A stretch of 64,000 nt of DNA. Source: Candidatus Versatilivorator sp. GTDB lineage: Bacteria; Acidobacteriota; Terriglobia; Versatilivoradales; Versatilivoraceae. The notes beneath the pieces are model-generated. The model saw nothing but the letters and a program-made list of their open reading frames with translations, was not told where the DNA came from and did no database searches. Below are positions 20,936 through 64,000 of the stretch, one piece after another (the first letter of the stretch is position 1; every line of letters starts with the position of its first letter). A program made the position numbers and the translations under genes. The stretch is taken from NCBI GenBank assembly GCA_965198125.1, contig CBDAOQ010000003.1, positions 3,407,953 to 3,471,952 of the forward strand, read 5' to 3'.

Positions 20936-21122
20936 GGGGTCGAGCGCAGGTTGCAGGGTAGCGGCCGCTTGAGCTGCGAGTGGCTGATGGCGAGGACCGC
21001 TTTGGCGTTGGAGGGTCTCGCAGGCAGGATGCTATTCGTTTCTTTCCAGGATGGCAATCAAATCCCGGTAATTGCTATCGGGAGGGCCGCCCCATGAGAA
21101 CCGGGATTCAGGGGAGAAACCA

Positions 21123-21292
21123 GCGAGGCCGTGCCTCAGACCGACAAGCAAGGGAAAAGAGATATCCACGAAGTAACACGAAGGGACAAAAAAAGATATC
21201 CACGAAGGACCACGAAGGGGCACGAAGAACCACAAATGGACACAAATGGACACGAAGGAGCACGAAGAGACTGATTGATGAATGGTTAATTG
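21123..21292. repeat. conserved unit GCGAGGCCGTGCCTCAGACCGACAAGCAAGGGAAAAGAG followed by 9-bp CACGAAGGN tandem array and CTGATTGATGAATGGTTAATTG
   Basis: About 11 imperfect 9-mers at 21164-21268. The same unit plus a shorter array occurs at 54279-54367 and a truncated one at 54518-54562. Confidence 0.7.
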
Positions 21293-54144: not shown

Positions 54145-54278
54145 TGCGAAACCTCCCTGAGCAACTATCCAAAGCACATTTGCAACGGCGCCATTATGGC
54201 AGTAATGGCCGCGATTATCAATGCCGGTGGGAATGAGCGGCCGGAAGCCTTCGAACTCCAAGGGATTCCTGTTACAGT

Positions 54279-54562
54279 CTGGCGAGGCCGTGCCTCAGAC
54301 CGATAAGCCAGGGAAAAAAGATATCCACGAAGGGAGACGAAGAGACTGATTGATGAATGGTTGATTGCCGATCGATGTCTCCGGAAGGACCCTGCGCTTG
54401 CCGCTTGACCCTTGGAAGATCATGGATGGATGAAATGGAACATGGATGAACAGGATGGACAGGACAATGGAGACGGAAAACCATCCGGTTCATCCTGTCT
54501 ATCGATGTAAATCAAAGATCTGGCGAGGCCGTGCCTCAGACCGACAAGCAGGGAGGGGGAAA
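54279..54562. repeat. repeat locus 5: conserved unit CTGGCGAGGCCGTGCCTCAGACCGAYAAGC (x2, direct) flanking a short CACGAAG array and a MITE-like unit (54439-54505)
   Basis: 54279-54367 matches 21121-21292. 54439-54463 (CATGGATGAACAGGATGGACAGGAC) and 54488-54505 (TCATCCTGTCTATCGATG) are inverted. 54518-54562 repeats the unit. Confidence 0.65.
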
Positions 54563-54706
54563 AGAACCACAAATTCACACCAACGGACTCCAATGATGTC
54601 ATAGAACCGGCCACTCCCATTCAAGCTGGGGACGCTTGAAATCAAGGATCAATCCGACTCTCAAAAAACTATTGAATCAGTCTGCTATGTTTGTTATAAA
54701 GTATAT

Positions 54707-56539
54707 ATGGACAGTTCACACGCCAATTCGACCACGCTGCGCACCATCCGCGCCAACCTTGATCTCACCCAGGAGCAGCTCGCCGAGCGGCTCGGTGTCT
54801 CTTTCGCCACCGTCAATCGCTGGGAAGGCGGATTGGTAACGCCCCAAAAGGCAGCTCGGGAGGCCATCGCCGCGCTGGCTGCCGAAGCCGGAGTCGACGC
54901 CCAGGAATCCGTTGCGGAACCCACCGAAGCGGCGGCGCGCGTGACCCGCCGGCGGTCCCGCCGGCGCCGGACGGCTGCTCCTTCCACCAAACCCATGGAG
55001 CAGATGCTGTGGGACGCGGCCTGCTCCATCCGCGGGGAGAAAGACGCGCCCAAGTTCAAGGACTACCTGTTGCCGCTTCTTTTCCTCAAACGCCTTTCGG
55101 ACGTCTTCGACGACGAGATCGATCGCCTGGCCGAGGAATTTGGAGACCACGAGGTCGCGCAAGAGATCGCGGAGAATGACCACGATCTGCTGCGCTTCTA
55201 CCTGCCGCCGGAAGCCCGCTGGGGAGTCATCAGCGGACGCGAAACTCACCAGTGGCCCCTCGACGACCACGGGCGAAGCACGCGGCCGCACGACATCGGC
55301 GAGCATCTGACCCGGGCGGTGCGGGTGGTCGTGCGGCAGAATCCCTCGCTTTCGGGCGTCATTGACCTCGTCGATTTCGCCTCCGAGCGCAACGGCGAGC
55401 GCGACCTCAACCCGGCCAAGCTCGCCGACGTGGTCGAGACCTTCTCCGATTCCCGATACCGGCTCGGCCTGGCCGACGTGCAGCCCGACTTCCTGGGACG
55501 CGCCTACGAGTACCTGCTCCGCAAATTTGCCGAAGGTTCCGGCCAGAGCGCGGGCGAGTTCTTCACCCCCACCGAGGTCGGCTTCCTCATGGCCCACCTC
55601 ATGCGCCCCAGGCCCGGCGAGGACTGCCACGACTATGCCTGCGGCTCGGCCGGTCTGCTGGTCAAGCTCGAACTGGTCGCGCGCGAACTCGACCCCACCA
55701 GCCGCGTGCCGCTCAAGCTCTGCGGCCAGGAACTGCAGGCCGAAAGCTACGCCGTCGCCCACATGAACGCCGTCATCCACGACATGGAGGTGGAAATCGC
55801 CCGCGGCGACACCATGATCAACCCCAAGTTCAAGACCCCATCGGGCCAAATCGCCGACCACGACATCGTGGTCGCCAATCCCATGTGGAACCAGCCCTTC
55901 AGCCCGGACCTCTTCGCCAATGACCCCTTCGACCGCTTCCGCACCCGGGGCGGCGTCACCACCGGCAAAGGCGACTGGGCCTGGCTCCAGCACACCCTGG
56001 CCTGCCTCAACCAGCGCGGGCGGGCGGCGGTGGTGCTCGACACCGGCGCAATGACCCGCGGCTCCGGCAGCAAGCATGAGGACCGGGAGCGCAACATCCG
56101 CAAGTGGTTCGTCGAGCGCGACCTCATCGACGGCGTCATCCTGCTGCCGGACAACCTCTTCTACAACACCAGCGCCGCCGGCGTCATCGTGGTGCTGTCC
56201 AAGCGCAAACCGGCCGCGCGGAAGGACAGGATCGTGCTCCTCAACGCCAGCCGGCGCGTGCGCAAGGGCCGCCCCAAGAACTACATCCCGGAGGAGGACA
56301 TCCGTCCCCTGGCGGCGGCCTTTGCGAAAGGCGAGCCGTTGCAGGGCGAGGTCGCCGTCATCACGCGCGAGCAGGCGGAACAGGCGGACTACAACCTCAG
56401 CCCGAGCCGCTGGGTGGGGCAGGCCGAGGCCGTCGCTCAGCGACCGATTAGGGAGATCATTGCCGAAATGCAGCGCCTCGATGATGAGGCCCGAGAGGTC
56501 GATGCGCGCCTGGCGGAAATGTTAGCACGACTGCAATAG
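54707..56539 (+). CDS. hsdM: Type I restriction-modification N6-adenine DNA methyltransferase subunit M with N-terminal HTH (XRE-like) domain
   Basis: N-terminus [21 protein letters not shown] is an HTH. HsdM N-terminal domain. AdoMet site FFTPTEV. Catalytic NPMWNQPF region; 610 aa. Confidence 0.85.
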
Positions 56540-56574
56540 TCGTGGATACTCAGGACCAAAGGAGGTAGGAGAGC

Positions 56575-56946
56575 ATGGGAGCGACGCAGGTAACGGTCAG
56601 AATCACCAACCCCGCGGAGCCGGACAGGTTTTGGGAGGGGTTGTTTCTGGTGGATATCGGGGCCACCGATTCCCTTGTCCCCAGACAGCATCTTGAGGCT
56701 ATCGGCCTCCAGCCCAGGGGCCGAAGGACTTACGAGCTTGCCGACGGCAGTGAACTCGCCGTCGACGTCACGGTGGCGGAGATAGAGTTCATGGGCGAGG
56801 TCATCGGCGGGACGGTGATATATGGCGAGTCCAACGCGGAGCCGCTGCTGGGCTTAACGGCGCTGGAATCCGTGGGCATTGAGGTGGACCCGGTGAGCCA
56901 GCGGTTGAAGAGGCTGCCGGCCGTGCGGCTCAAGGGGCTGGTGTGA
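56575..56946 (+). CDS. retropepsin-like (clan AA) aspartic protease
   Basis: FLVDIGATDSLVP matches the D(T/S)G(A/S) active-site context of retroviral-type aspartyl proteases. 123 aa; stop overlaps the hsdS start (ATGA). Confidence 0.55.
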   Translation: MGATQVTVRITNPAEPDRFWEGLFLVDIGATDSLVPRQHLEAIGLQPRGRRTYELADGSELAVDVTVAEIEFMGEVIGGTVIYGESNAEPLLGLTALESVGIEVDPVSQRLKRLPAVRLKGLV

Positions 56947-58205
56947 CGACAAGGGAGACAACCCGCCTTGCGGACATGTGCGACCTGACAGCGGAGCCGG
57001 TAAGGCCCGGCACTCGGCCGGAGGCACTCTATCTCGGTCTGGAGCATCTTGCTTCCGGGCGGCTTGTTCGAATTGGCGGCGGTCGGGCGTCAGAGATGCG
57101 AAGCACCACATCCGCGTTTCAAGCCGATGACGTGCTGTACGGAAAACTCCGTCCGTATCTCGACAAGGCCATATTGGCTGACGAGCCGGGTGTCTGCACG
57201 ACGGAACTGCTCGTACTCCGGGCCAAGGCCAACGTAGACCCTCGATTCCTCGCTGTATTTCTTCATTCTCGTGGATTCCTCGAGTATGCGGTTGCGGGAA
57301 CAACGGGTGTCCAGCATCCAAGGACGTCATGGGCACACATTCGAGAGTACGTGCTCCCTGCCCTCACGTTAACTGAACAGCAACGAATTGCCGACCTACT
57401 TTGGCTTGTGCATGGGGCAATCAGCCGGTCAGAGAAGCTGGTCGACGAAGGCCAAGCCCTCAAGCGCGCCGCCATGCAAACACTGTTCACGCGCTGCCTG
57501 CGCGGCGAGGCTCAGAAAGAAACCGAGATCGGCCCGGTGCCGGAGAGTTGGGATATTGCGCCAATAGCCTCAGTCGCTAGGGTGAAGGGTGGAAAACGAA
57601 TGCCCAAAGGCGTTGCTTTGACAAATGAAGATACCGGAAAGCCCTACATCCGCGTAACGGATTTCAGGGACCATGGAGTGGATGTTAATCAGTTGCTGTT
57701 TGTACCAAGGGGTTACGAGTCGACGATATCACGCTACATCATCTCCATCGACGACGTGTACATCTCGATTGCCGGGACCATTGGCCTAGTCGGACAAGTT
57801 CCACAGGTTCTTGATGGTGCGAATCTGACCGAGAACGCTGCGAAAATCTCGTTGATCGATCAAAGCGTAAACACACGTTTCTTGATGTACGCACTTGCCT
57901 CAGATACCTGCCAATCGCAGATCGCACAATCTACAGCTACGAACGCACAGCCGAAGCTCGCACTGGTTCGTATAGAACAGATCCAGTTACCAATTCCTCC
58001 GACATTGGACGAACAGAACGAGATCGTCGCCATTCTCGACGCCATCGACCGCAAGATCGACCTGCACCGCAGGAAACGTGCCGTCCTCGACGATCTGTTC
58101 AAGGCACTCCTTCACAAGCTGATGACGGGTGAAATCCGTGTCGCAGATCTGGGTCTGTCAGCGCTAAGGGAAACGGCCTTATCTTCACAAACTTTTAGCG
58201 GCTAA
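56943..58205 (+). CDS. hsdS: Type I restriction-modification specificity subunit S
   Basis: Two target-recognition domains with conserved spacers (YLGLEHL, DVLYGKLRPYLDK, second TRD and LFKALLHKLMTGEIRV). Confidence 0.8.
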   Translation: MTTRETTRLADMCDLTAEPVRPGTRPEALYLGLEHLASGRLVRIGGGRASEMRSTTSAFQADDVLYGKLRPYLDKAILADEPGVCTTELLVLRAKANVDPRFLAVFLHSRGFLEYAVAGTTGVQHPRTSWAHIREYVLPALTLTEQQRIADLLWLVHGAISRSEKLVDEGQALKRAAMQTLFTRCLRGEAQKETEIGPVPESWDIAPIASVARVKGGKRMPKGVALTNEDTGKPYIRVTDFRDHGVDVNQLLFVPRGYESTISRYIISIDDVYISIAGTIGLVGQVPQVLDGANLTENAAKISLIDQSVNTRFLMYALASDTCQSQIAQSTATNAQPKLALVRIEQIQLPIPPTLDEQNEIVAILDAIDRKIDLHRRKRAVLDDLFKALLHKLMTGEIRVADLGLSALRETALSSQTFSG

Positions 58206-58244
58206 GCTCGTCTTCACGATTTGAGTTTACAGGAAGAATAGCTC

Positions 58245-61200
58245 ATGGATTTTCCCGATCTCCCACATCTGCGACAGCTTCAGAAAGACTTATGGCAATG
58301 GCCCAGTTCTCGTGCCACGGTCATGGTCGGAGCCGGGTTTAGCCGAAATTCAGTGCCTTTGCCTGGCGTGAGCACGAGCTTCCCAACTTGGCCTGAATTG
58401 GCCCAGGCCATGTTCGATGAGATTTACCCCGCATCGCCGAACGAGACAGCGGAACAAAAGCGAAGCAGAGAAAAACAATTCGACCGCAGTAACGCGCTCA
58501 GACTTGCCAGTGAATACGCGGCGACATTTGATCGCCAGAGACTTAAGTCCTTAATCCGCACAAGGATCCCTGATATCGATCACCAGCCGGGCAAAATTCA
58601 CAACCTGCTTCTCCAACTCCCATGGAAAGACGTCTTTACAACAAATTACGACACGCTTCTTGAGCGAACGGAGGTGCCGGGAAGGGTATATCAACCGGTG
58701 ACAACGGTACCCGAACTGACAACCGCGATTTCTCCAAGGATCATAAAACTACATGGCTCGTTTCCTTCCCTGACGCAATTCATCCTCACCGAAGAGGACT
58801 ACCGGTCTTACCCGAAAGACTTTGTGCTGTTTATCAACACCGTTCGCCAGTCACTGATCGAAAACACCTTCGTTTTAGTCGGCTTTTCGGGCGATGATCC
58901 GAATTTTTTGCAATGGACCGGTTGGATTCGGGATGAGCTTGGTAGTAACCATGCCCCTATCTATTTGGTCAGTCCTTTGTCATTAAGCAACGTGCAACGT
59001 TCGCTTCTCGCAAAACGGGGAGTAAAACCCATTGATCTCTCTCCCGTATTTTCGAGCAAAAATCGACCAGAAAGAATTCATGCATCCGCTGTCGAATGGT
59101 TTCTTCGCACTTTACTGGCAGCAAAGCCCCAACGACCGGATGCGTGGCTTAAAACCAAGAGGAGTGCCGCGGGAAACGCTGAGTTTGAACCTCCGATTCT
59201 TGTCAGCGGCTTCACCGAACCGGAAAAAGTTGATTTATCCGGCAGTTCTCAGAGTCCTCTGGACGAAGCTACCGTAATAAAGGTCATCAAGCGATGGCGT
59301 TTTGAGAGGAATCGTTATCCGGGATGGTTGATTCCAACGAACGAGATAAGATCTTTGCTTTGGCACGAAACGGGAGACTGGATAACGCCCCTTATCAAAT
59401 TTGCCGAAAACTGGCCGCCGGCCGATCGTCTTTTACTTTTTCGTGAGATTAACTGGCGGCTTGAAGTATCAATGATCCCGCTTTTTTCTGACTGGATAAC
59501 TCCGTTTGAGTCAGCAGTTGATGATCTATTTCCCAGCCTTAAAGATGGGATACCCATAAAGCCATCGGTCAAGGCAGTGAGGCCCATAAATGTTTCGAAT
59601 ACGGAAGTGCCTGAAGCGTGGCTGGAAATCGCCTTTGCGCTACTCCGCGAATCACGAGAAGACTATCACTCGGAGCGTTGGAACGCGTTCAATAACAAGA
59701 TTGGTCAAGTTGTAGGCAATTACCCGCAATTCACCGACAAGAATTATTACGAGCAGGCTTTATGGAGGATATGGAACATAGAGAGAAACCAAGCCAACGA
59801 TGTGCTTGCAAAATGGTCGCCTTCACCACATTCGCCCCTCGCCGTAATGTGGAAGGCAGGGCTTCTGGCCGAACTCGACGATTTAAACGAGGCGCGCTCT
59901 CTTCTACGAACCGCACTGCGAGAAATCAGAAAATCTCTCCATAACTCTCAAGGACGCAATATTGATCTGCTCTCGCTTGAAGGATGGTGTGCGTACTTAT
60001 TATTTACAAGCACGCTTTCGCTGGAAGGATCTGAAGGGCGGCAGCTCCAGGAAGAGTTCTCAGAGCGATGGCAGGAATTGGAAGCATGGGACTGTAGCCC
60101 TTGGCCGCTTAAGCAGTACTTCGACGCAATACTGTCGAAAACTCCACCCATCCCCCAAAAGCCAAAACAAATCGTCCGCAGCTTCGATCCCGGGCGTAGG
60201 ACTATCACTCACCATATTGGAAGTACCATAGGACCGTGGCTGCCCGCATTTGCTTGCATCCGGTTATACGAACAGGTTGGCATCCCCTTACACTTGCGCT
60301 GCTTCAACCTTTCAGGAAGCGCGCTGAGAAACGCGTGTAAATGGGTAGCTCCCTTCACCGGCTTCTGGAGCCCGGCACTTCTTATTCGTGCCGGTAAAAG
60401 AGACGATCTGACAAAGCATGACATTATGAATCGTGTGCAAGTTGCCGCGATGAAACCGGATCTTGCGAGAAGCCTGAACAAATGGGCGATGCGCGCATTG
60501 AAACGCGAGATTTCGTCTCTGAGCGGAAACGTTACACGGACATCCGGTCAAGAATCATTACTGGAAGTACTGCCTGAAGTCTTGTCAAGACTGGCGTTCA
60601 AGTTGGAATCGTCTGATCTCCAAGAGGCGTTTTCCGTGGCCTTGGGGCTTCATGCGCAACCTGGTATCGCCAGTAATATCAGCCTTCATCGATCGTGTAA
60701 ACCTTGGTTTGAGCGATTGTTTGAAGCCGCTGATGACAGACAACTTCTCGTATGGCTTCCCGAATTGATTCAGTTTCCGCTAAGTGTTGGAGGTGTTGGA
60801 AGTGATCGACTCTCGAATCCGTATCCTCACCCTTGGCCTGACCCGATGACACATTTTCCAATAGAACGATTACGTATTGCCGATGACTTGTCTTCCGAAC
60901 TTGAAGCTGAAATTAATGAGTCAACTGAGTGGCTCTTGGAGCGTGCCAAGAGCGAACTGGGCGAAGAACGTTGCAGAGCAATGATGCGTCTCATTGACCT
61001 TTTCGACACCAAACTAATGACGGAGGAACAAAGAAATCGTCTAGGTGCATTGCTATGGGAGAAAACCAGCGAATACGGTTTGCCTGATTTGCCGGATCTT
61101 AACTGTTTCAGCTACTTGCATTTACCCTCGCCTGAAAAAGTTGATGTCGTCTCGAAAGTTAATGCACACATACTTAACATCGCGCCAATTCGGTCCGTAT

Positions 61201-62129
61201 CAATTGACACCAAGGGAACGATCTCCATATCAAGACAAGCAACGGCAGATCCGATGATTTTTAATGCGGCATTTGCTTCAAAGGCCGCCGTTAATATTCC
61301 CTACGAACCGACGGGGATCATTGAATGGAGTTGGGACGAGGCGAAGAAACTGTGGGAAAGATCGAAAGAATGGTGGGATAACGAAAAAATCGCGTTGTCC
61401 ATCGAGAAGTCTTCACCCTTTCTTGGGACCGAGCATATATCAGACAATCTTGAGAGGGTGGGTACGTTTTTGGCACGAGCCGTATTGCCAAAAATGGACT
61501 CGGCAAGTGAGGATGAATGGAACAGTGTGCTTGCGTTTTTTTCCGAGACTCGGAAACGCGGAGTGTATCTGACCACGGTATTACCGTACGTCCTTCTCCA
61601 TCGTTCCAGCGAAAGAGAGAAAGTTATTGAAACGGTTCTCGATGACCTGTCTTCAGATGATGAGAAGGCTGTACAAGCGAGTGCAAGAGCTATTCGGCAT
61701 TGGGTTCATTTAGCCGTCGCGGGGTTTTTGGACATTCCACCGAAAACAGTGATTGACGAATTGATACGGCGGGTCGTATTCAGGCGACCTGAAGGGACCC
61801 AGACTTGCTTGCATCAATTGGCAGTTCTCCTAATCGAAAAACCCGATTTCGTCAATTCTGGACAAGTGAATCTCGTTGTTGCGAGTATAACACCATGGAG
61901 TCAGGCAACCTGTCTTCCGCTCTCCGAAGAAAGGAATGGCGATTTTCCTGAAGAGGAAAGACCCGAAATTCGCGCTCTTCTCGGAAGGTTGGCCTCTGCG
62001 CTCAGCATCTGGCTGAAGAAGAGAATTCCCAATCAACCAGAACCCCCGGGAATTTCTCGTTTGAGGCAATCGTACAAATCAGACCCTCTCCCAGAGGTTC
62101 GACGAGCTTTTGACACATGGAAGCAATGA
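58245..62129 (+). CDS. SIR2-domain (DSR2-like defense-associated sirtuin) large protein: N-terminal SIR2 NADase-like domain plus about 1000-aa helical C-terminal region
   Basis: VMVGAGFS (Gly-rich NAD loop), TTNYDTLLE with Asn134, IIKLHGS with His170, VGFSGDDPNF. The Asn/His positions match the catalytic N133/H171 spacing of DSR2. GC about 50%, below the flanks. Confidence 0.75.
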   Translation: MDFPDLPHLRQLQKDLWQWPSSRATVMVGAGFSRNSVPLPGVSTSFPTWPELAQAMFDEIYPASPNETAEQKRSREKQFDRSNALRLASEYAATFDRQRLKSLIRTRIPDIDHQPGKIHNLLLQLPWKDVFTTNYDTLLERTEVPGRVYQPVTTVPELTTAISPRIIKLHGSFPSLTQFILTEEDYRSYPKDFVLFINTVRQSLIENTFVLVGFSGDDPNFLQWTGWIRDELGSNHAPIYLVSPLSLSNVQRSLLAKRGVKPIDLSPVFSSKNRPERIHASAVEWFLRTLLAAKPQRPDAWLKTKRSAAGNAEFEPPILVSGFTEPEKVDLSGSSQSPLDEATVIKVIKRWRFERNRYPGWLIPTNEIRSLLWHETGDWITPLIKFAENWPPADRLLLFREINWRLEVSMIPLFSDWITPFESAVDDLFPSLKDGIPIKPSVKAVRPINVSNTEVPEAWLEIAFALLRESREDYHSERWNAFNNKIGQVVGNYPQFTDKNYYEQALWRIWNIERNQANDVLAKWSPSPHSPLAVMWKAGLLAELDDLNEARSLLRTALREIRKSLHNSQGRNIDLLSLEGWCAYLLFTSTLSLEGSEGRQLQEEFSERWQELEAWDCSPWPLKQYFDAILSKTPPIPQKPKQIVRSFDPGRRTITHHIGSTIGPWLPAFACIRLYEQVGIPLHLRCFNLSGSALRNACKWVAPFTGFWSPALLIRAGKRDDLTKHDIMNRVQVAAMKPDLARSLNKWAMRALKREISSLSGNVTRTSGQESLLEVLPEVLSRLAFKLESSDLQEAFSVALGLHAQPGIASNISLHRSCKPWFERLFEAADDRQLLVWLPELIQFPLSVGGVGSDRLSNPYPHPWPDPMTHFPIERLRIADDLSSELEAEINESTEWLLERAKSELGEERCRAMMRLIDLFDTKLMTEEQRNRLGALLWEKTSEYGLPDLPDLNCFSYLHLPSPEKVDVVSKVNAHILNIAPIRSVSIDTKGTISISRQATADPMIFNAAFASKAAVNIPYEPTGIIEWSWDEAKKLWERSKEWWDNEKIALSIEKSSPFLGTEHISDNLERVGTFLARAVLPKMDSASEDEWNSVLAFFSETRKRGVYLTTVLPYVLLHRSSEREKVIETVLDDLSSDDEKAVQASARAIRHWVHLAVAGFLDIPPKTVIDELIRRVVFRRPEGTQTCLHQLAVLLIEKPDFVNSGQVNLVVASITPWSQATCLPLSEERNGDFPEEERPEIRALLGRLASALSIWLKKRIPNQPEPPGISRLRQSYKSDPLPEVRRAFDTWKQ

Positions 62130-62457
62130 GGGTAGAGGGTATCCATGAACCTTGATGCAATCTGAGCGTTGGCCCGAACCGGCGAATCTGACACGCCGGA
62201 GTTCAAGGCGACGACCCAGACGAGTCGAGAGGCAGCCACGATGGGTTTCCCCTTCTTGAACAATCACGGCGGGCAGGCGCTGTTCGGTGTGACGCCGCAC
62301 GGTTGTGGTTAGCTGTTGGGTCAGCGGGCGGACCATCAAGGAATTGAGCGCCGAGCGTCGGCGAAGCACCCCCCCGGACTTCCCGACGGACGAACGGGTC
62401 CGCGTGGACGGCGACCGCGAAGTCATTGTCGAAGCGAACGCGACCCCAAGAGAATAA

Positions 62458-62790
62458 ATGATGATTCCGGACGTTGCCGAGCGGGCTGCTGAACTGGAAC
62501 AACTCTGCCGGGACCACCATGTCTGGCGGCTCGACCTGTTCGGTTCGGCCGCAGCCGGACGGTTTCAATCTGAAAGGAGCGACCTCGACTTCCTTGTCGA
62601 TTTCCACCCGCTTCCTTTCAGCGACTACGCCGACGCTTACTTCGGCCTGCTAGCCGCGCTGCGACAACTTTTTGAACGGCCTGTGGACCTTGTCGTTCGC
62701 GCTGCCATTAAAAATCCTTACTTCTTGCAATCAGTGGAGCAGACGAGGACATGCGTTTATGAAGCTCGAAGCCAAGAAATATCTGTATGA
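62458..62790 (+). CDS. nucleotidyltransferase (MNT/MntA-type antitoxin-like, Pol-beta superfamily)
   Basis: LFGSAAAGRFQSERSDLDFLVDF (GSxxxGxxxxxSDxD NTase motif); 110 aa. Confidence 0.7.
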   Translation: MMIPDVAERAAELEQLCRDHHVWRLDLFGSAAAGRFQSERSDLDFLVDFHPLPFSDYADAYFGLLAALRQLFERPVDLVVRAAIKNPYFLQSVEQTRTCVYEARSQEISV

Positions 62791-62878
62791 CAACCTGGGA
62801 CAGGCCACCACGAATTCACGGGGGCAGTTGCGGCGCGGGGTCTGCCGGAGGGAACAAGGTGGGAATGCTCAAGGATGA
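62759..62878 (+). pseudogene. truncated HepT (DUF86)-like toxin remnant overlapping the MNT stop
   Basis: Begins MKLEAKKYLYDNL like HepT N-termini but terminates after 39 aa; probably degraded. Confidence 0.3.
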
Positions 62879-62917: not shown

Positions 62918-64000
62918 ATGCCGCCCGTTTATTATCACGAGGGCAGATTCCCGCCCGAGGAGCGCCTCGACTGGTCCAAGCTGATCCCGCTCATCGGCCG
63001 TGCCAGTGCTGCGGTGGCTCGCTACGACGGGATGCTCGGCGCCACCCCTGACCCCGATGTTCTGCTCTCCCCGCTGACCACCCGCGAAGCTGTACTTTCC
63101 TCACGCATCGAAGGCACCCAGGCCACCATGGGTGAAGTACTCGAGTACGAGGCCGGACAAGAACCCGATTCTCCCGCACGTCGGGAAGACATCCACGAGG
63201 TTATTAACTATCGCTCGGCCATGCGGCAAGCGGAAAAAATGCTGAAAGATCTGCCACTGTCCCTGCGGGTTATTCGCGAGGCCCACAAGGTACTAATGAG
63301 CGGCGTGCGGGGCGAGGGAAAGTCGCCAGGTGAGTTTCGCCGGGTCCCCAACTGGATCGGACCGCCCGGCTGCACGGTCAGTCAAGCCACGTTTGTGCCG
63401 ATCCGGGCAGACAAACTTCCCGAGGCAATGGGTGCGTGGGAGCGCGATATCCACCGCGCTGCGCCCGACCCCTTGGTACAACTCGCAATCCTCCACGCTG
63501 AATTCGAGGCGCTGCATCCGTTCCTGGATGGCAATGGCCGCCTCGGGCGCATGCTGGTGCCTCTTTTCCTGTGGCATGCCGGCCTCATCAGGGCCCCCCG
63601 GTTCTACATCAGCGCCTACTTCGAAACCCGCCGCGATGCCTATTACGACGGTTTGCTTGCCGTCTCCCGAGACGACGACTGGACAGGGTGGTGCCAGTTT
63701 TTCCTTGAGGCGGTATGGGTCCAGGCTGAGGAGAACCTGGCCAAGGCCCAAGGCATTATTGATCTCTTCGGCCGTATGAAGCAGCGGGTGGCGGAGTTGA
63801 CCCGCTCGCAGTACGCCTTTCGTGCTCTGGATTGGATTTTCGCGTATCCGATTTTCACCAGCACCCACTTTGTGCAGGGTGCAGGCATCCCGGAGCCCAC
63901 GGCTCGCCGGTTTCTTCGAGTGCTGCGAGACGGGGAGATTCTCAAACTGGCTAAACCTGGCGTTGGCCGACGGGCCAGCATGTTCCTTTTTCCGGCTCTC
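62918..64000 (+). CDS. Fic family protein (AMPylase-like), 3' end beyond window
   Basis: Fic motif HPFLDGNGRLGRML (HPFx[DE]GNGR) at about residue 170. Open to the window edge, so it is absent from the ORF track. Confidence 0.85.
   Translation, partial: MPPVYYHEGRFPPEERLDWSKLIPLIGRASAAVARYDGMLGATPDPDVLLSPLTTREAVLSSRIEGTQATMGEVLEYEAGQEPDSPARREDIHEVINYRSAMRQAEKMLKDLPLSLRVIREAHKVLMSGVRGEGKSPGEFRRVPNWIGPPGCTVSQATFVPIRADKLPEAMGAWERDIHRAAPDPLVQLAILHAEFEALHPFLDGNGRLGRMLVPLFLWHAGLIRAPRFYISAYFETRRDAYYDGLLAVSRDDDWTGWCQFFLEAVWVQAEENLAKAQGIIDLFGRMKQRVAELTRSQYAFRALDWIFAYPIFTSTHFVQGAGIPEPTARRFLRVLRDGEILKLAKPGVGRRASMFLFPAL

Follow-up and report, generated by a model that had tools for sequence, protein, structure and literature searches.

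The hsdM and hsdS genes found in the 64-kb window (the whole stretch of DNA analysed) would belong, with a probability of about 0.85, to a complete Type I restriction-modification (RM) operon, the 5′ two-thirds of which lies in the window and which appears to carry an autonomous, horizontally acquired DSR2 gene as cargo in a slot with exchangeable content immediately 3′ of hsdS. From 5′ to 3′, the operon is predicted to consist of HTH-hsdM, a protease gene as passenger, hsdS, a cargo tract of several kb, hsdR and a YgjP-like gene. As judged by synteny with close relatives, the hsdR gene of the source genome almost certainly lies ~3.8 kb beyond the right edge of the window, ~5.7 kb 3′ of the DSR2 gene.

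Analysis of open reading frames and Pfam domains confirmed the coordinates and domain content that an earlier note on this DNA had given for four genes on the + strand. The first, hsdM (54707..56539, + strand), encodes a 610-aa Type I methyltransferase subunit that carries an XRE-type HTH at its N terminus as well as an Arg-rich linker. It matches Pfam N6_Mtase (8.4e-73), HsdM_N (4.3e-23), HTH_3 (3.9e-08) and also HTH_31, as well as PADLOC MTase_I (2.5e-148) and PDB entry 7vru (2.7e-67). Motif IV of this HsdM is NPMW, not NPPF/Y, and is kept in the orthologues from contigs L001, L004, L085, L005 and L006. The hsdS gene (56943..58205, + strand) has a GTG start and encodes a 420-aa specificity subunit, which matches Pfam Methylase_S (8.3e-25) and PADLOC Specificity_I (4.8e-71), with the models spanning residues 7-412. 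One target-recognition domain, encoded by 57552-58019, is unique to this genome, and blastn comparison of hsdS with sister contigs gave a mosaic. The genes are tightly spaced: 35 nt separate hsdM from the protease gene and 39 nt separate hsdS from the DSR2 gene, while the protease stop overlaps hsdS by 4 nt. A promoter and terminator scan was uninformative, giving fewer matches than in shuffled sequence. The RM genes and DSR2 probably share transcription without depending on one another.

The passenger gene between hsdM and hsdS (56575..56946, + strand) encodes a 123-aa homologue of clan AA (retropepsin-like) aspartic proteases, which scored 75.3 bits against NCBIfam TIGR03698 (cutoff 57.35) and matches Pfam gag-asp_proteas/Asp_protease_2. 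Its motif is D-I-G, as compared with D-T-G in the family, and this change is confined to the genome studied here. A role of the protease as a dedicated partner of HTH-fused HsdM, for example in CapP/CapH-like removal of the HTH, was rejected as a general rule, because hsdM was found upstream in just 4 of 80 metagenome loci (with hsdS directly downstream in three of the four) and there was no conserved neighbour. HTH-HsdM occurs without the protease gene in L005 and L096. The idea of a partner had been prompted by locus L012, where the protease gene comes after an HTH-SNF2-NOV_C gene. Literature searches for an aspartic protease with hsdM gave nothing relevant.

The DSR2 (defence-associated sirtuin 2) family reportedly goes back to Gao et al. 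2020, and the DSR2 of B. subtilis 29R was reportedly studied by Garb et al. and in cryo-EM papers of 2024. In the window, the fourth gene (58245..62129, + strand), which has a ribosome-binding site (AGGAAG) 8 nt 5′ of the ATG, encodes a DSR2-family defence-associated sirtuin of 1294 aa, in which a SIR2 NADase domain (N134, H170) at the N terminus precedes a long C-terminal region of all-alpha structure. The earlier assignment of this large gene to the DSR2 family of sirtuins is borne out by a match to PADLOC Dsr2 (PDLC02184, E=1.8e-218) that covers nearly the entire profile (positions 11-1190 of 1222). Matches were also obtained to NCBIfam NF041819 (734 bits, positions 6-1193 of 1215, below the equivalog cutoff of 1400) and to Pfam SIR2_2 (5.5e-20, residues 130-263). 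As judged by these profiles, the protein is a clear Dsr2 homologue of a divergent branch. N134 and H170 are invariant across 19 homologues, and in a phmmer alignment to 8wkt the TTNYD and KxHG motifs coincide with those of the B. subtilis DSR2, which is active as a single gene and in which N133 and H171 are essential (bioRxiv 10.1101/2021.12.14.472415). An AF2 model of residues 95-1294, for which the alignment was built from database proteins only, had a mean pLDDT of 76.5 and is essentially all-helical beyond the SIR2 domain. The best Foldseek match in the PDB was a DSR2 chain (8wye_A, E=7e-6), and seven further DSR2 chains were among the top 23, with TM-scores of 0.12-0.31 and generic HEAT-repeat karyopherins scoring similarly. 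No sequence similarity to the B. subtilis DSR2 in the PDB was detectable outside the SIR2 domain, the C-terminal region being divergent.

A search with an HsdR profile detected no HsdR-like ORF across the 64-kb window, even at E<=10. The absence of hsdR reported in the earlier note is therefore correct for the window but almost certainly does not extend beyond it. Nine contigs of close relatives are collinear with the window, with shared flanks 82-99% identical; these are L001-L004, L085-L087 and L095, which represent the same chromosomal site, and L096, which represents another. All nine encode a 983-aa HsdR on the same strand, 3′ of hsdS; in L002-L004 and L085-L087 it has HSDR_N, ResIII, SWI2_SNF2 and T1R_D3-like domains, and the L001 copy matches PADLOC REase_I (5.9e-87). 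Since the window stops within the Fic gene, upstream of hsdR in all syntenic relatives, the absence of hsdR is most likely an edge effect. The match to the window extends up to base 64000 in six of the nine contigs, and in four of these six (L002, L085, L086 and L087) hsdR starts 3.80-3.87 kb past the base aligned to window position 64000. Identity to the window is 99.2-99.6% up to base 64000 for L002-L004 and 95-96.6% for L087; for L085 and L086, blastn gave 97.4% in the flank, 93.5% in the DSR2 region and 99.7% in Fic. The RM backbone with hsdR is also present at the same chromosomal site in L095 (DSR2 81% identical), at a different one in L096 (76%), and further in L005 (73%), in L006 (64%; order hsdS-DSR2-hsdR, with a 28-nt gap) and in L090 and L091, which have no DSR2.

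These findings bear on the suggestion in the earlier note that the methylase is an orphan next to an independent DSR2-like gene. On this reading, hsdR would have been lost or inactivated in this genome, leaving HsdM2S as a methyltransferase only, with an epigenetic or anti-restriction role. Besides the absence of hsdR from the window, decay of the cargo tract (the deletion of hepT and the frameshift in the AlbA_2 gene described below), the DTG-to-DIG change exclusive to this genome and the split hsdR of L087 and L004 could be taken in its favour. However, the window stops 3.8 kb before the hsdR site of four collinear contigs with 95-99.8% identity, HsdR is found downstream in 9/9 syntenic contigs as well as in L005, L006, L090 and L091, and the gene is intact (983 aa) in L001-L003, L085, L086, L095 and L096. 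The frameshifts that split hsdR in L087 and L004 are suggested to be assembly errors, given the low coverage of these assemblies (6-14x) and the fact that hsdM is also split there, though loss of hsdR in some strains is conceivable. In addition, dN/dS values of 0.09-0.19 against sister contigs indicate that hsdM is under purifying selection, and the target-recognition domains of hsdS have been exchanged between strains, as expected of an active restriction system. An orphan methylase is accordingly an unlikely reading of the locus.

The earlier note had also raised a three-component HsdM-HsdS-SIR2 system, in which the SIR2 protein replaces HsdR as the effector of MS-guided self/non-self recognition. 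The same-strand arrangement with short gaps and the lack of hsdR in the window would fit such a system, but HsdR was found beside DSR2 wherever a same-strand hsdMS operon had sufficient contig (L085-L087, L095, L096, L005, L006, L038, L039 and L079). Moreover, the protein has no domain resembling the HsdM-docking part of HsdR, SIR2_2 being its only Pfam match, and hsdMS is absent near most DSR2 homologues. Replacement of HsdR by the SIR2 protein can thus be practically dismissed.

The best-supported reading, an option that the earlier note had included, takes DSR2 as an abortive-infection gene that is independent of the RM genes beside it. At the DSR2 position, L001-L004 carry a 189-aa gene together with TIR_2, LD_cluster2 and ThsB_TIR genes (a TIR/SLOG cassette); the junctions of the swapped cassette relative to the window are at ~58147 and ~62423, where similarity resumes. 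In L089, the same slot is occupied by a gene for a Cap4-nuclease/NACHT protein. Sister strains hence exchange DSR2 for unrelated cassettes with the RM genes unchanged. The DSR2 gene is also compositionally foreign, with a GC content of 49% versus 62-67%. Its GC and GC3 are 49.3% and 0.50, as compared with 66.6% and 0.86 for hsdM, while the protease gene has 63.4% GC and hsdS 55.5%; further right, values are 62.2% for 62130-62457, 55.0% for the MNT gene and 61.5% for the part of Fic in the window. Among the genes between 54.7 and 64 kb, low GC is limited to DSR2 and one target-recognition domain of hsdS, and the GC content of 50-55% previously attributed to this entire segment is wrong for hsdM and the protease gene. 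DSR2 is best explained as self-contained cargo, acquired horizontally, in the exchangeable slot that immediately follows hsdS.

The remainder of the cargo begins with a frameshifted remnant of a Schlafen/AlbA_2-like gene (62169..62457, + strand; ORF fragments of 47 and 50 aa), the counterpart of which in L001-L004 is a 97-aa gene with a weak SLFN_AlbA_2 match. It is followed by a gene (62458..62790, + strand) for an MntA-type nucleotidyltransferase antitoxin of 110 aa, identical in L001-L004, with weak similarity to NCBIfam MntA (6.8e-09, 35.6 bits, under the 60-bit cutoff). The hepT partner is deleted in the window, ~330 bp being absent relative to L085 as judged by blastn and the L085 gene list. 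A Fic-family gene (62918..64000, + strand), 371 aa in relatives, is truncated by the end of the window, which falls ~33 nt short of the stop codon; it is similar to NCBIfam SoFic (4.6e-43, 147.5 bits, under the 550-bit equivalog cutoff), and L002-L004, L085 and L086 share 99.2-99.8% identity with the window here. The cargo tract amounts to ~9.6 kb in this lineage.

Upstream of hsdM lies a 439-bp low-GC (~49.5%) insertion (54226..54664), in which a dispersed repeat occurs twice (54278-54308 and 54519-54549). The repeat locus that the earlier note placed on the left is not an array and consists of just these two 31-nt direct repeats, 241 bp apart, which are part of a dispersed ~85-nt element also present at 21103-21186. 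No Rfam match was obtained for the repeat region. The insertion is absent from L001-L004, and L085-L087 and L095 have a PH_gly_zipper gene at this position. It marks a second variable spot, separate from the defence genes.

The neighbourhoods of 80 DSR2-family loci were surveyed by clustering of neighbour families, with hsdM counted within 10 kb. HsdM is the commonest neighbour family, yet it is present in only 7 of the 80 loci, and no family exceeds seven. The loci with hsdM are mostly within complete hsdMSR operons. The earlier note had held that co-location in a defence island would be seen as a normal hsdR nearby and SIR2 homologues that never adjoin hsdMS; the former was found in relatives, whereas DSR2 homologues do recur beside hsdM (7/80). 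The insertion point of DSR2 varies, being between hsdS and hsdR in L005, L006 and L079, between hsdM and hsdS in L039, and upstream of hsdM in L038. The order hsdS-DSR2-...-hsdR on the same strand is shared by L085-L087, L095, L096, L005, L006 and L079. No RM genes were found within 10 kb of DSR2 in L007 and L019 (60% identical), and in L097 (66%) DSR2 is kept with only an hsdS remnant, without hsdM or hsdR. There is no obligate partner gene among these neighbours, and DSR2 would therefore act as a single gene, as far as can be judged computationally from neighbour clustering at the 80 loci. Literature searches for DSR2 with hsdR gave nothing relevant.

DSR2 proteins at least 64% identical to that of the window are encoded in eight contigs (L085, L086, L087, L095, L096, L005, L006 and L097, two near-duplicates included) directly behind hsdS of one RM family or, in L097, behind its remnant. 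The association of this subclade with one RM family is tighter than random island co-location. It could mean that the subclade is a guardian resembling PrrC, kept inactive by HsdMSR or set off once a phage anti-restriction protein has put HsdMSR out of action. The rank of HsdM as the most frequent neighbour family points in this direction, as do the tight intergenic gaps without terminators. Furthermore, L097 apart, all seven sampled loci of at least 64% identity, which represent two chromosomal sites and three taxa, have DSR2 immediately 3′ of an hsdS that belongs to one NPMW-type RM family; the coupling of PrrC to EcoprrI is a precedent (PMC12707154). Against it, hsdM is near so few DSR2-family loci, the insertion position is variable, L007, L019 and most other loci lack RM genes, L097 retains DSR2 without hsdM or hsdR, sister strains replace DSR2 by unrelated cassettes with the RM genes unaltered, and the B. 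subtilis DSR2 is autonomous and triggered by a tail tube protein (bioRxiv 10.1101/2021.12.14.472415). A guardian role is therefore improbable. It is similarly doubtful that the subclade of at least 64% identity forms a lasting fourth component of a single Type I RM family (HTH-HsdM/NPMW), with its gene invariably next to the end of hsdS, acting as an NAD+-depleting PrrC-like guardian whose divergent C-terminal solenoid would respond to the condition of HsdMSR, or to an anti-restriction protein, and not to a tail tube protein.

With DSR2 as autonomous cargo of a complete RM operon, two lines of defence would be encoded. In the first, HsdM2S would methylate host sites and HsdR2M2S would cleave unmethylated incoming DNA. 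Should a phage get past this barrier, DSR2 may bind one of its proteins through the all-alpha C-terminal region and thereby release the N-terminal SIR2 NADase (N134/H170), and the ensuing NAD+ depletion would abort infection as the second line. Both the NADase activity and the trigger are predictions.

The locus calls for caution, as a subunit that is missing at the edge of a window requires a synteny check before a new architecture is proposed. It also provides a clear natural example of cassette exchange, with one post-hsdS slot taken by DSR2, by a TIR/SLOG cassette or by a Cap4-NACHT protein depending on the genome, and adds DSR2, in several phyla, to the defence genes already known from within Type I RM operons. 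The guardian reading, if true, would link NAD+-depletion immunity to restriction-enzyme surveillance.

Like the B. subtilis DSR2, for which cryo-EM papers appeared in 2024 (PMC10981675, PMC11850899), the window protein is a single large polypeptide with an N-terminal SIR2 domain, catalytic Asn and His and a long all-alpha, solenoid-like remainder; it aligns with the Dsr2 profiles of PADLOC and NCBIfam along their full length, though below the equivalog cutoff of the latter, and the B. subtilis protein is its top Foldseek match in the PDB. It differs in its size, 1294 aa as compared with 1005 aa, and in that sequence similarity is detectable in the SIR2 domain only (E ~1e-10 to 1e-11), with a global TM of 0.2-0.3. 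The location of an abortive-infection effector gene inside a Type I RM operon is shared with PrrC/EcoprrI, but PrrC is almost confined to that setting and under the physical control of the RM enzyme, whereas relatives of DSR2 are mostly found elsewhere, with no coupling indicated. Defence cargo within a Type I RM operon is an arrangement already in the literature (bioRxiv 10.1101/2024.01.29.577857; PMC11411939), precedents being the 'guilt-by-embedding' of Payne et al. 2024, TgvAB in V. cholerae VPI-2 and the Rlo genes of Campylobacter. Unlike in the published cases, the embedded gene here is DSR2, which is absent from the main text of Payne et al. 2024, and the cargo tract is long (~9.6 kb). 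As in those cases, the interval from hsdS to hsdR in the relatives is filled by defence and toxin-antitoxin genes that are unrelated to the RM genes but share their strand, and the content differs between strains while the RM backbone is conserved.

The four genes described in the earlier note are real, and all of them lie on the forward strand exactly where it had placed them. HTH-hsdM (54707-56539) encodes a 610 aa methylase subunit with Pfam HTH_3/HTH_31, HsdM_N and N6_Mtase domains (PADLOC MTase_I, 2.5e-148), and is separated by 35 nt from a gene for a 123 aa clan AA aspartic protease-like protein (56575-56946; Pfam gag-asp_proteas/Asp_protease_2, no PADLOC match). The latter overlaps by 4 nt with hsdS (56943-58205; 420 aa, GTG start; Pfam Methylase_S; PADLOC Specificity_I, 4.8e-71), and 39 nt further on lies the gene for the 1294 aa SIR2 protein (58245-62129), designated DSR2, with Pfam SIR2_2 at residues 130-263 and a PADLOC Dsr2 match (1.8e-218) over profile positions 11-1190 of 1222. 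Shine-Dalgarno-like sequences precede the protease gene and DSR2. The catalytic motif IV of HsdM is NPMW (residues 391-394; window 55877-55888), not the canonical NPPF/Y/W. As the Nitrospirales (L005) and Binatia (L006) orthologues also have NPMW, the variant is a subfamily trait and not a defect.

The statement that no hsdR is present was correct within the 64 kb, as a profile constructed from the HsdR proteins of related loci matched none of the window ORFs of at least 60 aa, even at E<=10. By blastn, the window is collinear with contigs of close relatives that lack DSR2 (L001-L004) or carry it at the same chromosomal site (L085-L087; L085 and L086, of 2.2-2.4 Mb, and L087 were reached via the DSR2 proteins P0002 and P0001, 91-92% identical). 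Identity is 95-99.5% in the left flank, 93-97% in hsdM and the protease gene and, in L085-L087 only, 93.5-95% in DSR2. An MntA-like protein (62458-62790) is identical in the four metagenome contigs L001-L004, and L002-L004, L085 and L086 share 99.2-99.8% identity with the window over its final 1.2-1.6 kb, ending at base 64000. The window ends ~33 nt short of the stop codon of a 371 aa Fic gene, beyond which the collinear contigs have genes for DUF3800, a small ORF, a second Fic, PIN/Phd (opposite strand), HsdR and a YgjP-like protein, then core genes. This HsdR (983 aa) includes HSDR_N, ResIII, SWI2_SNF2 and T1R_D3-like domains, the copy in L001 is recognised by PADLOC as REase_I (5.9e-87), and hsdR starts 3.80-3.87 kb beyond the base aligned to window position 64000 in L002, L085, L086 and L087. 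In L095 (DSR2 81% identical, same site), hsdR is just 2.3 kb downstream of DSR2, and L096 (DSR2 76% identical), at a different site beside an IS element, has the order hsdM-hsdS-DSR2-DUF4926-PIN-hsdR. Judged by synteny, hsdR is predicted to be present in the source genome with a probability of about 0.9, and its apparent absence is very probably an artefact of the window edge. The proposal that the SIR2 protein stands in for HsdR is not supported, given that synteny places an HsdR downstream in the collinear relatives.

Genes within 4 kb of DSR2 homologues were surveyed by profile searches and unbiased clustering in 80 loci from GTDB species representatives (26-73% identity to the DSR2 of the window; 47 of them flanked on each side by 5 kb or more). 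Recurrent adjacency to hsdMS, raised in the earlier note, held in so far as HsdM was the commonest neighbour family, yet it was found in just 7 of the 80 loci (L005, L006, L038, L039, L072, L079 and L081). HsdR is present in six of these seven, and also in L068; L072, with hsdM and hsdS upstream of DSR2, had no HsdR in the available flanks. The DSR2 insertion point varies (between hsdS and hsdR, between hsdM and hsdS, or upstream of hsdM), as does the adjoining restriction-modification (RM) family, with motif IV either NPMW or NPPF. A system in which SIR2 replaces HsdR does not fit the variable insertion point and the HsdR in six of the seven loci. Seven related contigs of the close subclade (64% identity or more), among them two near-duplicates, carry DSR2 after the hsdS of the same RM family, while no RM genes accompany the 60% identical DSR2 of L007 and L019. 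In L097 (9220-13879), a 66% identical DSR2 adjoins smpB, and neither hsdM nor hsdR occurs within 10 kb; a 220 aa ORF upstream combines a phage-integrase fragment with an HsdS C-terminal remnant, which suggests that the DSR2 cassette and the hsdS 3' end moved together. The neighbour pattern is consistent with an autonomous gene that has been embedded and co-transferred repeatedly. A PrrC-like coupling between DSR2 and the RM enzyme has nothing specific in its favour and is considered improbable. Among other contexts, distant DSR2 relatives in L041, L048 and L058 (about 5.9-9.9 kb) directly follow genes for Type IIG (Eco57I/MmeI-like) enzymes. In L012 (5963-9975), an HTH-SNF2-NOV_C gene, with an HTH ~50% identical to that fused to HsdM, is followed by the same small protease gene and DSR2.

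The position after hsdS is variable. L001-L004, which share 98.7-99.5% identity with the window in their flanks, carry in place of window positions 58148-62422 four genes (L001:6391-9694, likewise in L002-L004) for proteins of 189 aa, 342 aa (TIR_2), 282 aa (LD_cluster2/SLOG) and 199 aa (ThsB-like TIR). The left junction falls where hsdS is conserved, at its 3' end, and the right one in a degraded AlbA_2-like gene. PADLOC gave only weak ThsB matches in this cassette and named no system; it may be an undescribed TIR/SLOG defence system. The same HTH-hsdM/protease/hsdS backbone is followed in L089 by a 946 aa Cap4-nuclease and NACHT protein (Avs-like STAND; L089:7661-10501), a third occupant of the slot, and in L090 and L091 by small unknown genes, with hsdR after them. 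The Binatia locus has an AAA_21 (AbiEii/OLD-type ABC ATPase) gene between hsdM and hsdS (L006:6500-7891) and DSR2 between hsdS and hsdR, hence two embedded genes in one RM operon.

Low GC content, claimed for the whole 54.7-64 kb segment, applies to hsdS (55.5% overall, 49.8% in one target-recognition domain) and DSR2 (49.3%) but not to hsdM (66.6%) or the protease gene (63.4%); GC3 is 0.50 in DSR2 versus 0.86 in hsdM. Together with the variability of the slot, this foreign composition shows that DSR2 is exchangeable cargo acquired horizontally. The window genome shows decay in the cargo tract. Of the MntA/HepT pair, only the antitoxin-type gene is left, the hepT toxin gene having been lost at 62786-62795 (a deletion of ~330 bp relative to L085), and the AlbA_2/Schlafen-like gene upstream (62169-62457) survives only as two frameshifted fragments. 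In hsdS, the target-recognition domain at 57552-58019 has no match in any sister contig and the remainder matches one strain group or the other, a mosaic that indicates domain exchange and hence differing specificities among closely related strains.

The 'repeat locus' reported on the left amounts to two 31-nt repeat copies within an insertion of 439 bp (54226-54664) upstream of hsdM; the copies are part of a dispersed element of at least 85 nt (core GCGAGGCCGTGCCTCAGACCGA, common tail ACGAAGAGACTGATTGATGAATGGTT) without a match in Rfam. The insertion contains two element copies, is absent in L001-L004 and is replaced by a PH_gly_zipper gene in L085-L087 and L095; a third copy occupies another low-GC intergenic region (21103-21290).

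The protease gene matches the NCBIfam clan AA model TIGR03698 (75 bits, cutoff 57) and belongs to a very conserved family, with more than 120 database clusters at least 80% identical. Across 80 JGI metagenome loci (identity 65-84%) it is mostly solitary, with no conserved neighbour and hsdM alongside in just four, and in L088 it accompanies a DUF3800 gene outside an RM context. This makes it a passenger gene rather than part of the Type I RM system. Codon 28 (56656-56658, ATC) gives D-I-G, whereas all sister contigs and 104 of 120 family members have the catalytic D-T-G; the substitution looks strain-specific, and it may leave the window copy inactive.

DSR2 is classed as a divergent member of its family. 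Its N134 and H170, the catalytic Asn and His, are invariant in the homologues and correspond in alignment to N133 and H171 of the B. subtilis protein, where mutating these residues abolishes defence (bioRxiv 10.1101/2021.12.14.472415). The NCBIfam Dsr2 match is full-length (734 bits), under the equivalog cutoff of 1400, and sequence similarity to solved structures is confined to the SIR2 domain. An AF2 model of residues 95-1294 (pLDDT 76.5) is all-helical past this domain; in the PDB it matches DSR2 8wye_A best (E=7e-6), with TM-scores of just 0.2-0.3 and generic HEAT-repeat proteins scoring nearby. At least eight related contigs carry the ORF intact, and dN/dS is 0.32-0.54 for DSR2 versus 0.09-0.19 for hsdM, the higher value being what an immune sensor would be expected to show. 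By analogy, DSR2 would deplete NAD+ when triggered by a phage protein.

The locus is thus a Type I RM operon, its hsdR placed by synteny, with embedded, swappable, autonomous defence cargo. Embedding of defence genes in such operons is an established pattern: PrrC is located within EcoprrI (PMC12707154), the Type I RM operon of VPI-2 contains TgvAB, the Rlo genes being a further example (PMC11411939), and Payne et al. surveyed such genes systematically (bioRxiv 10.1101/2024.01.29.577857). Single-gene NADase defence by DSR2 is likewise well characterised (bioRxiv 10.1101/2021.12.14.472415), and the present locus is a fresh instance that joins these two known things, DSR2 and embedding in a Type I RM operon.
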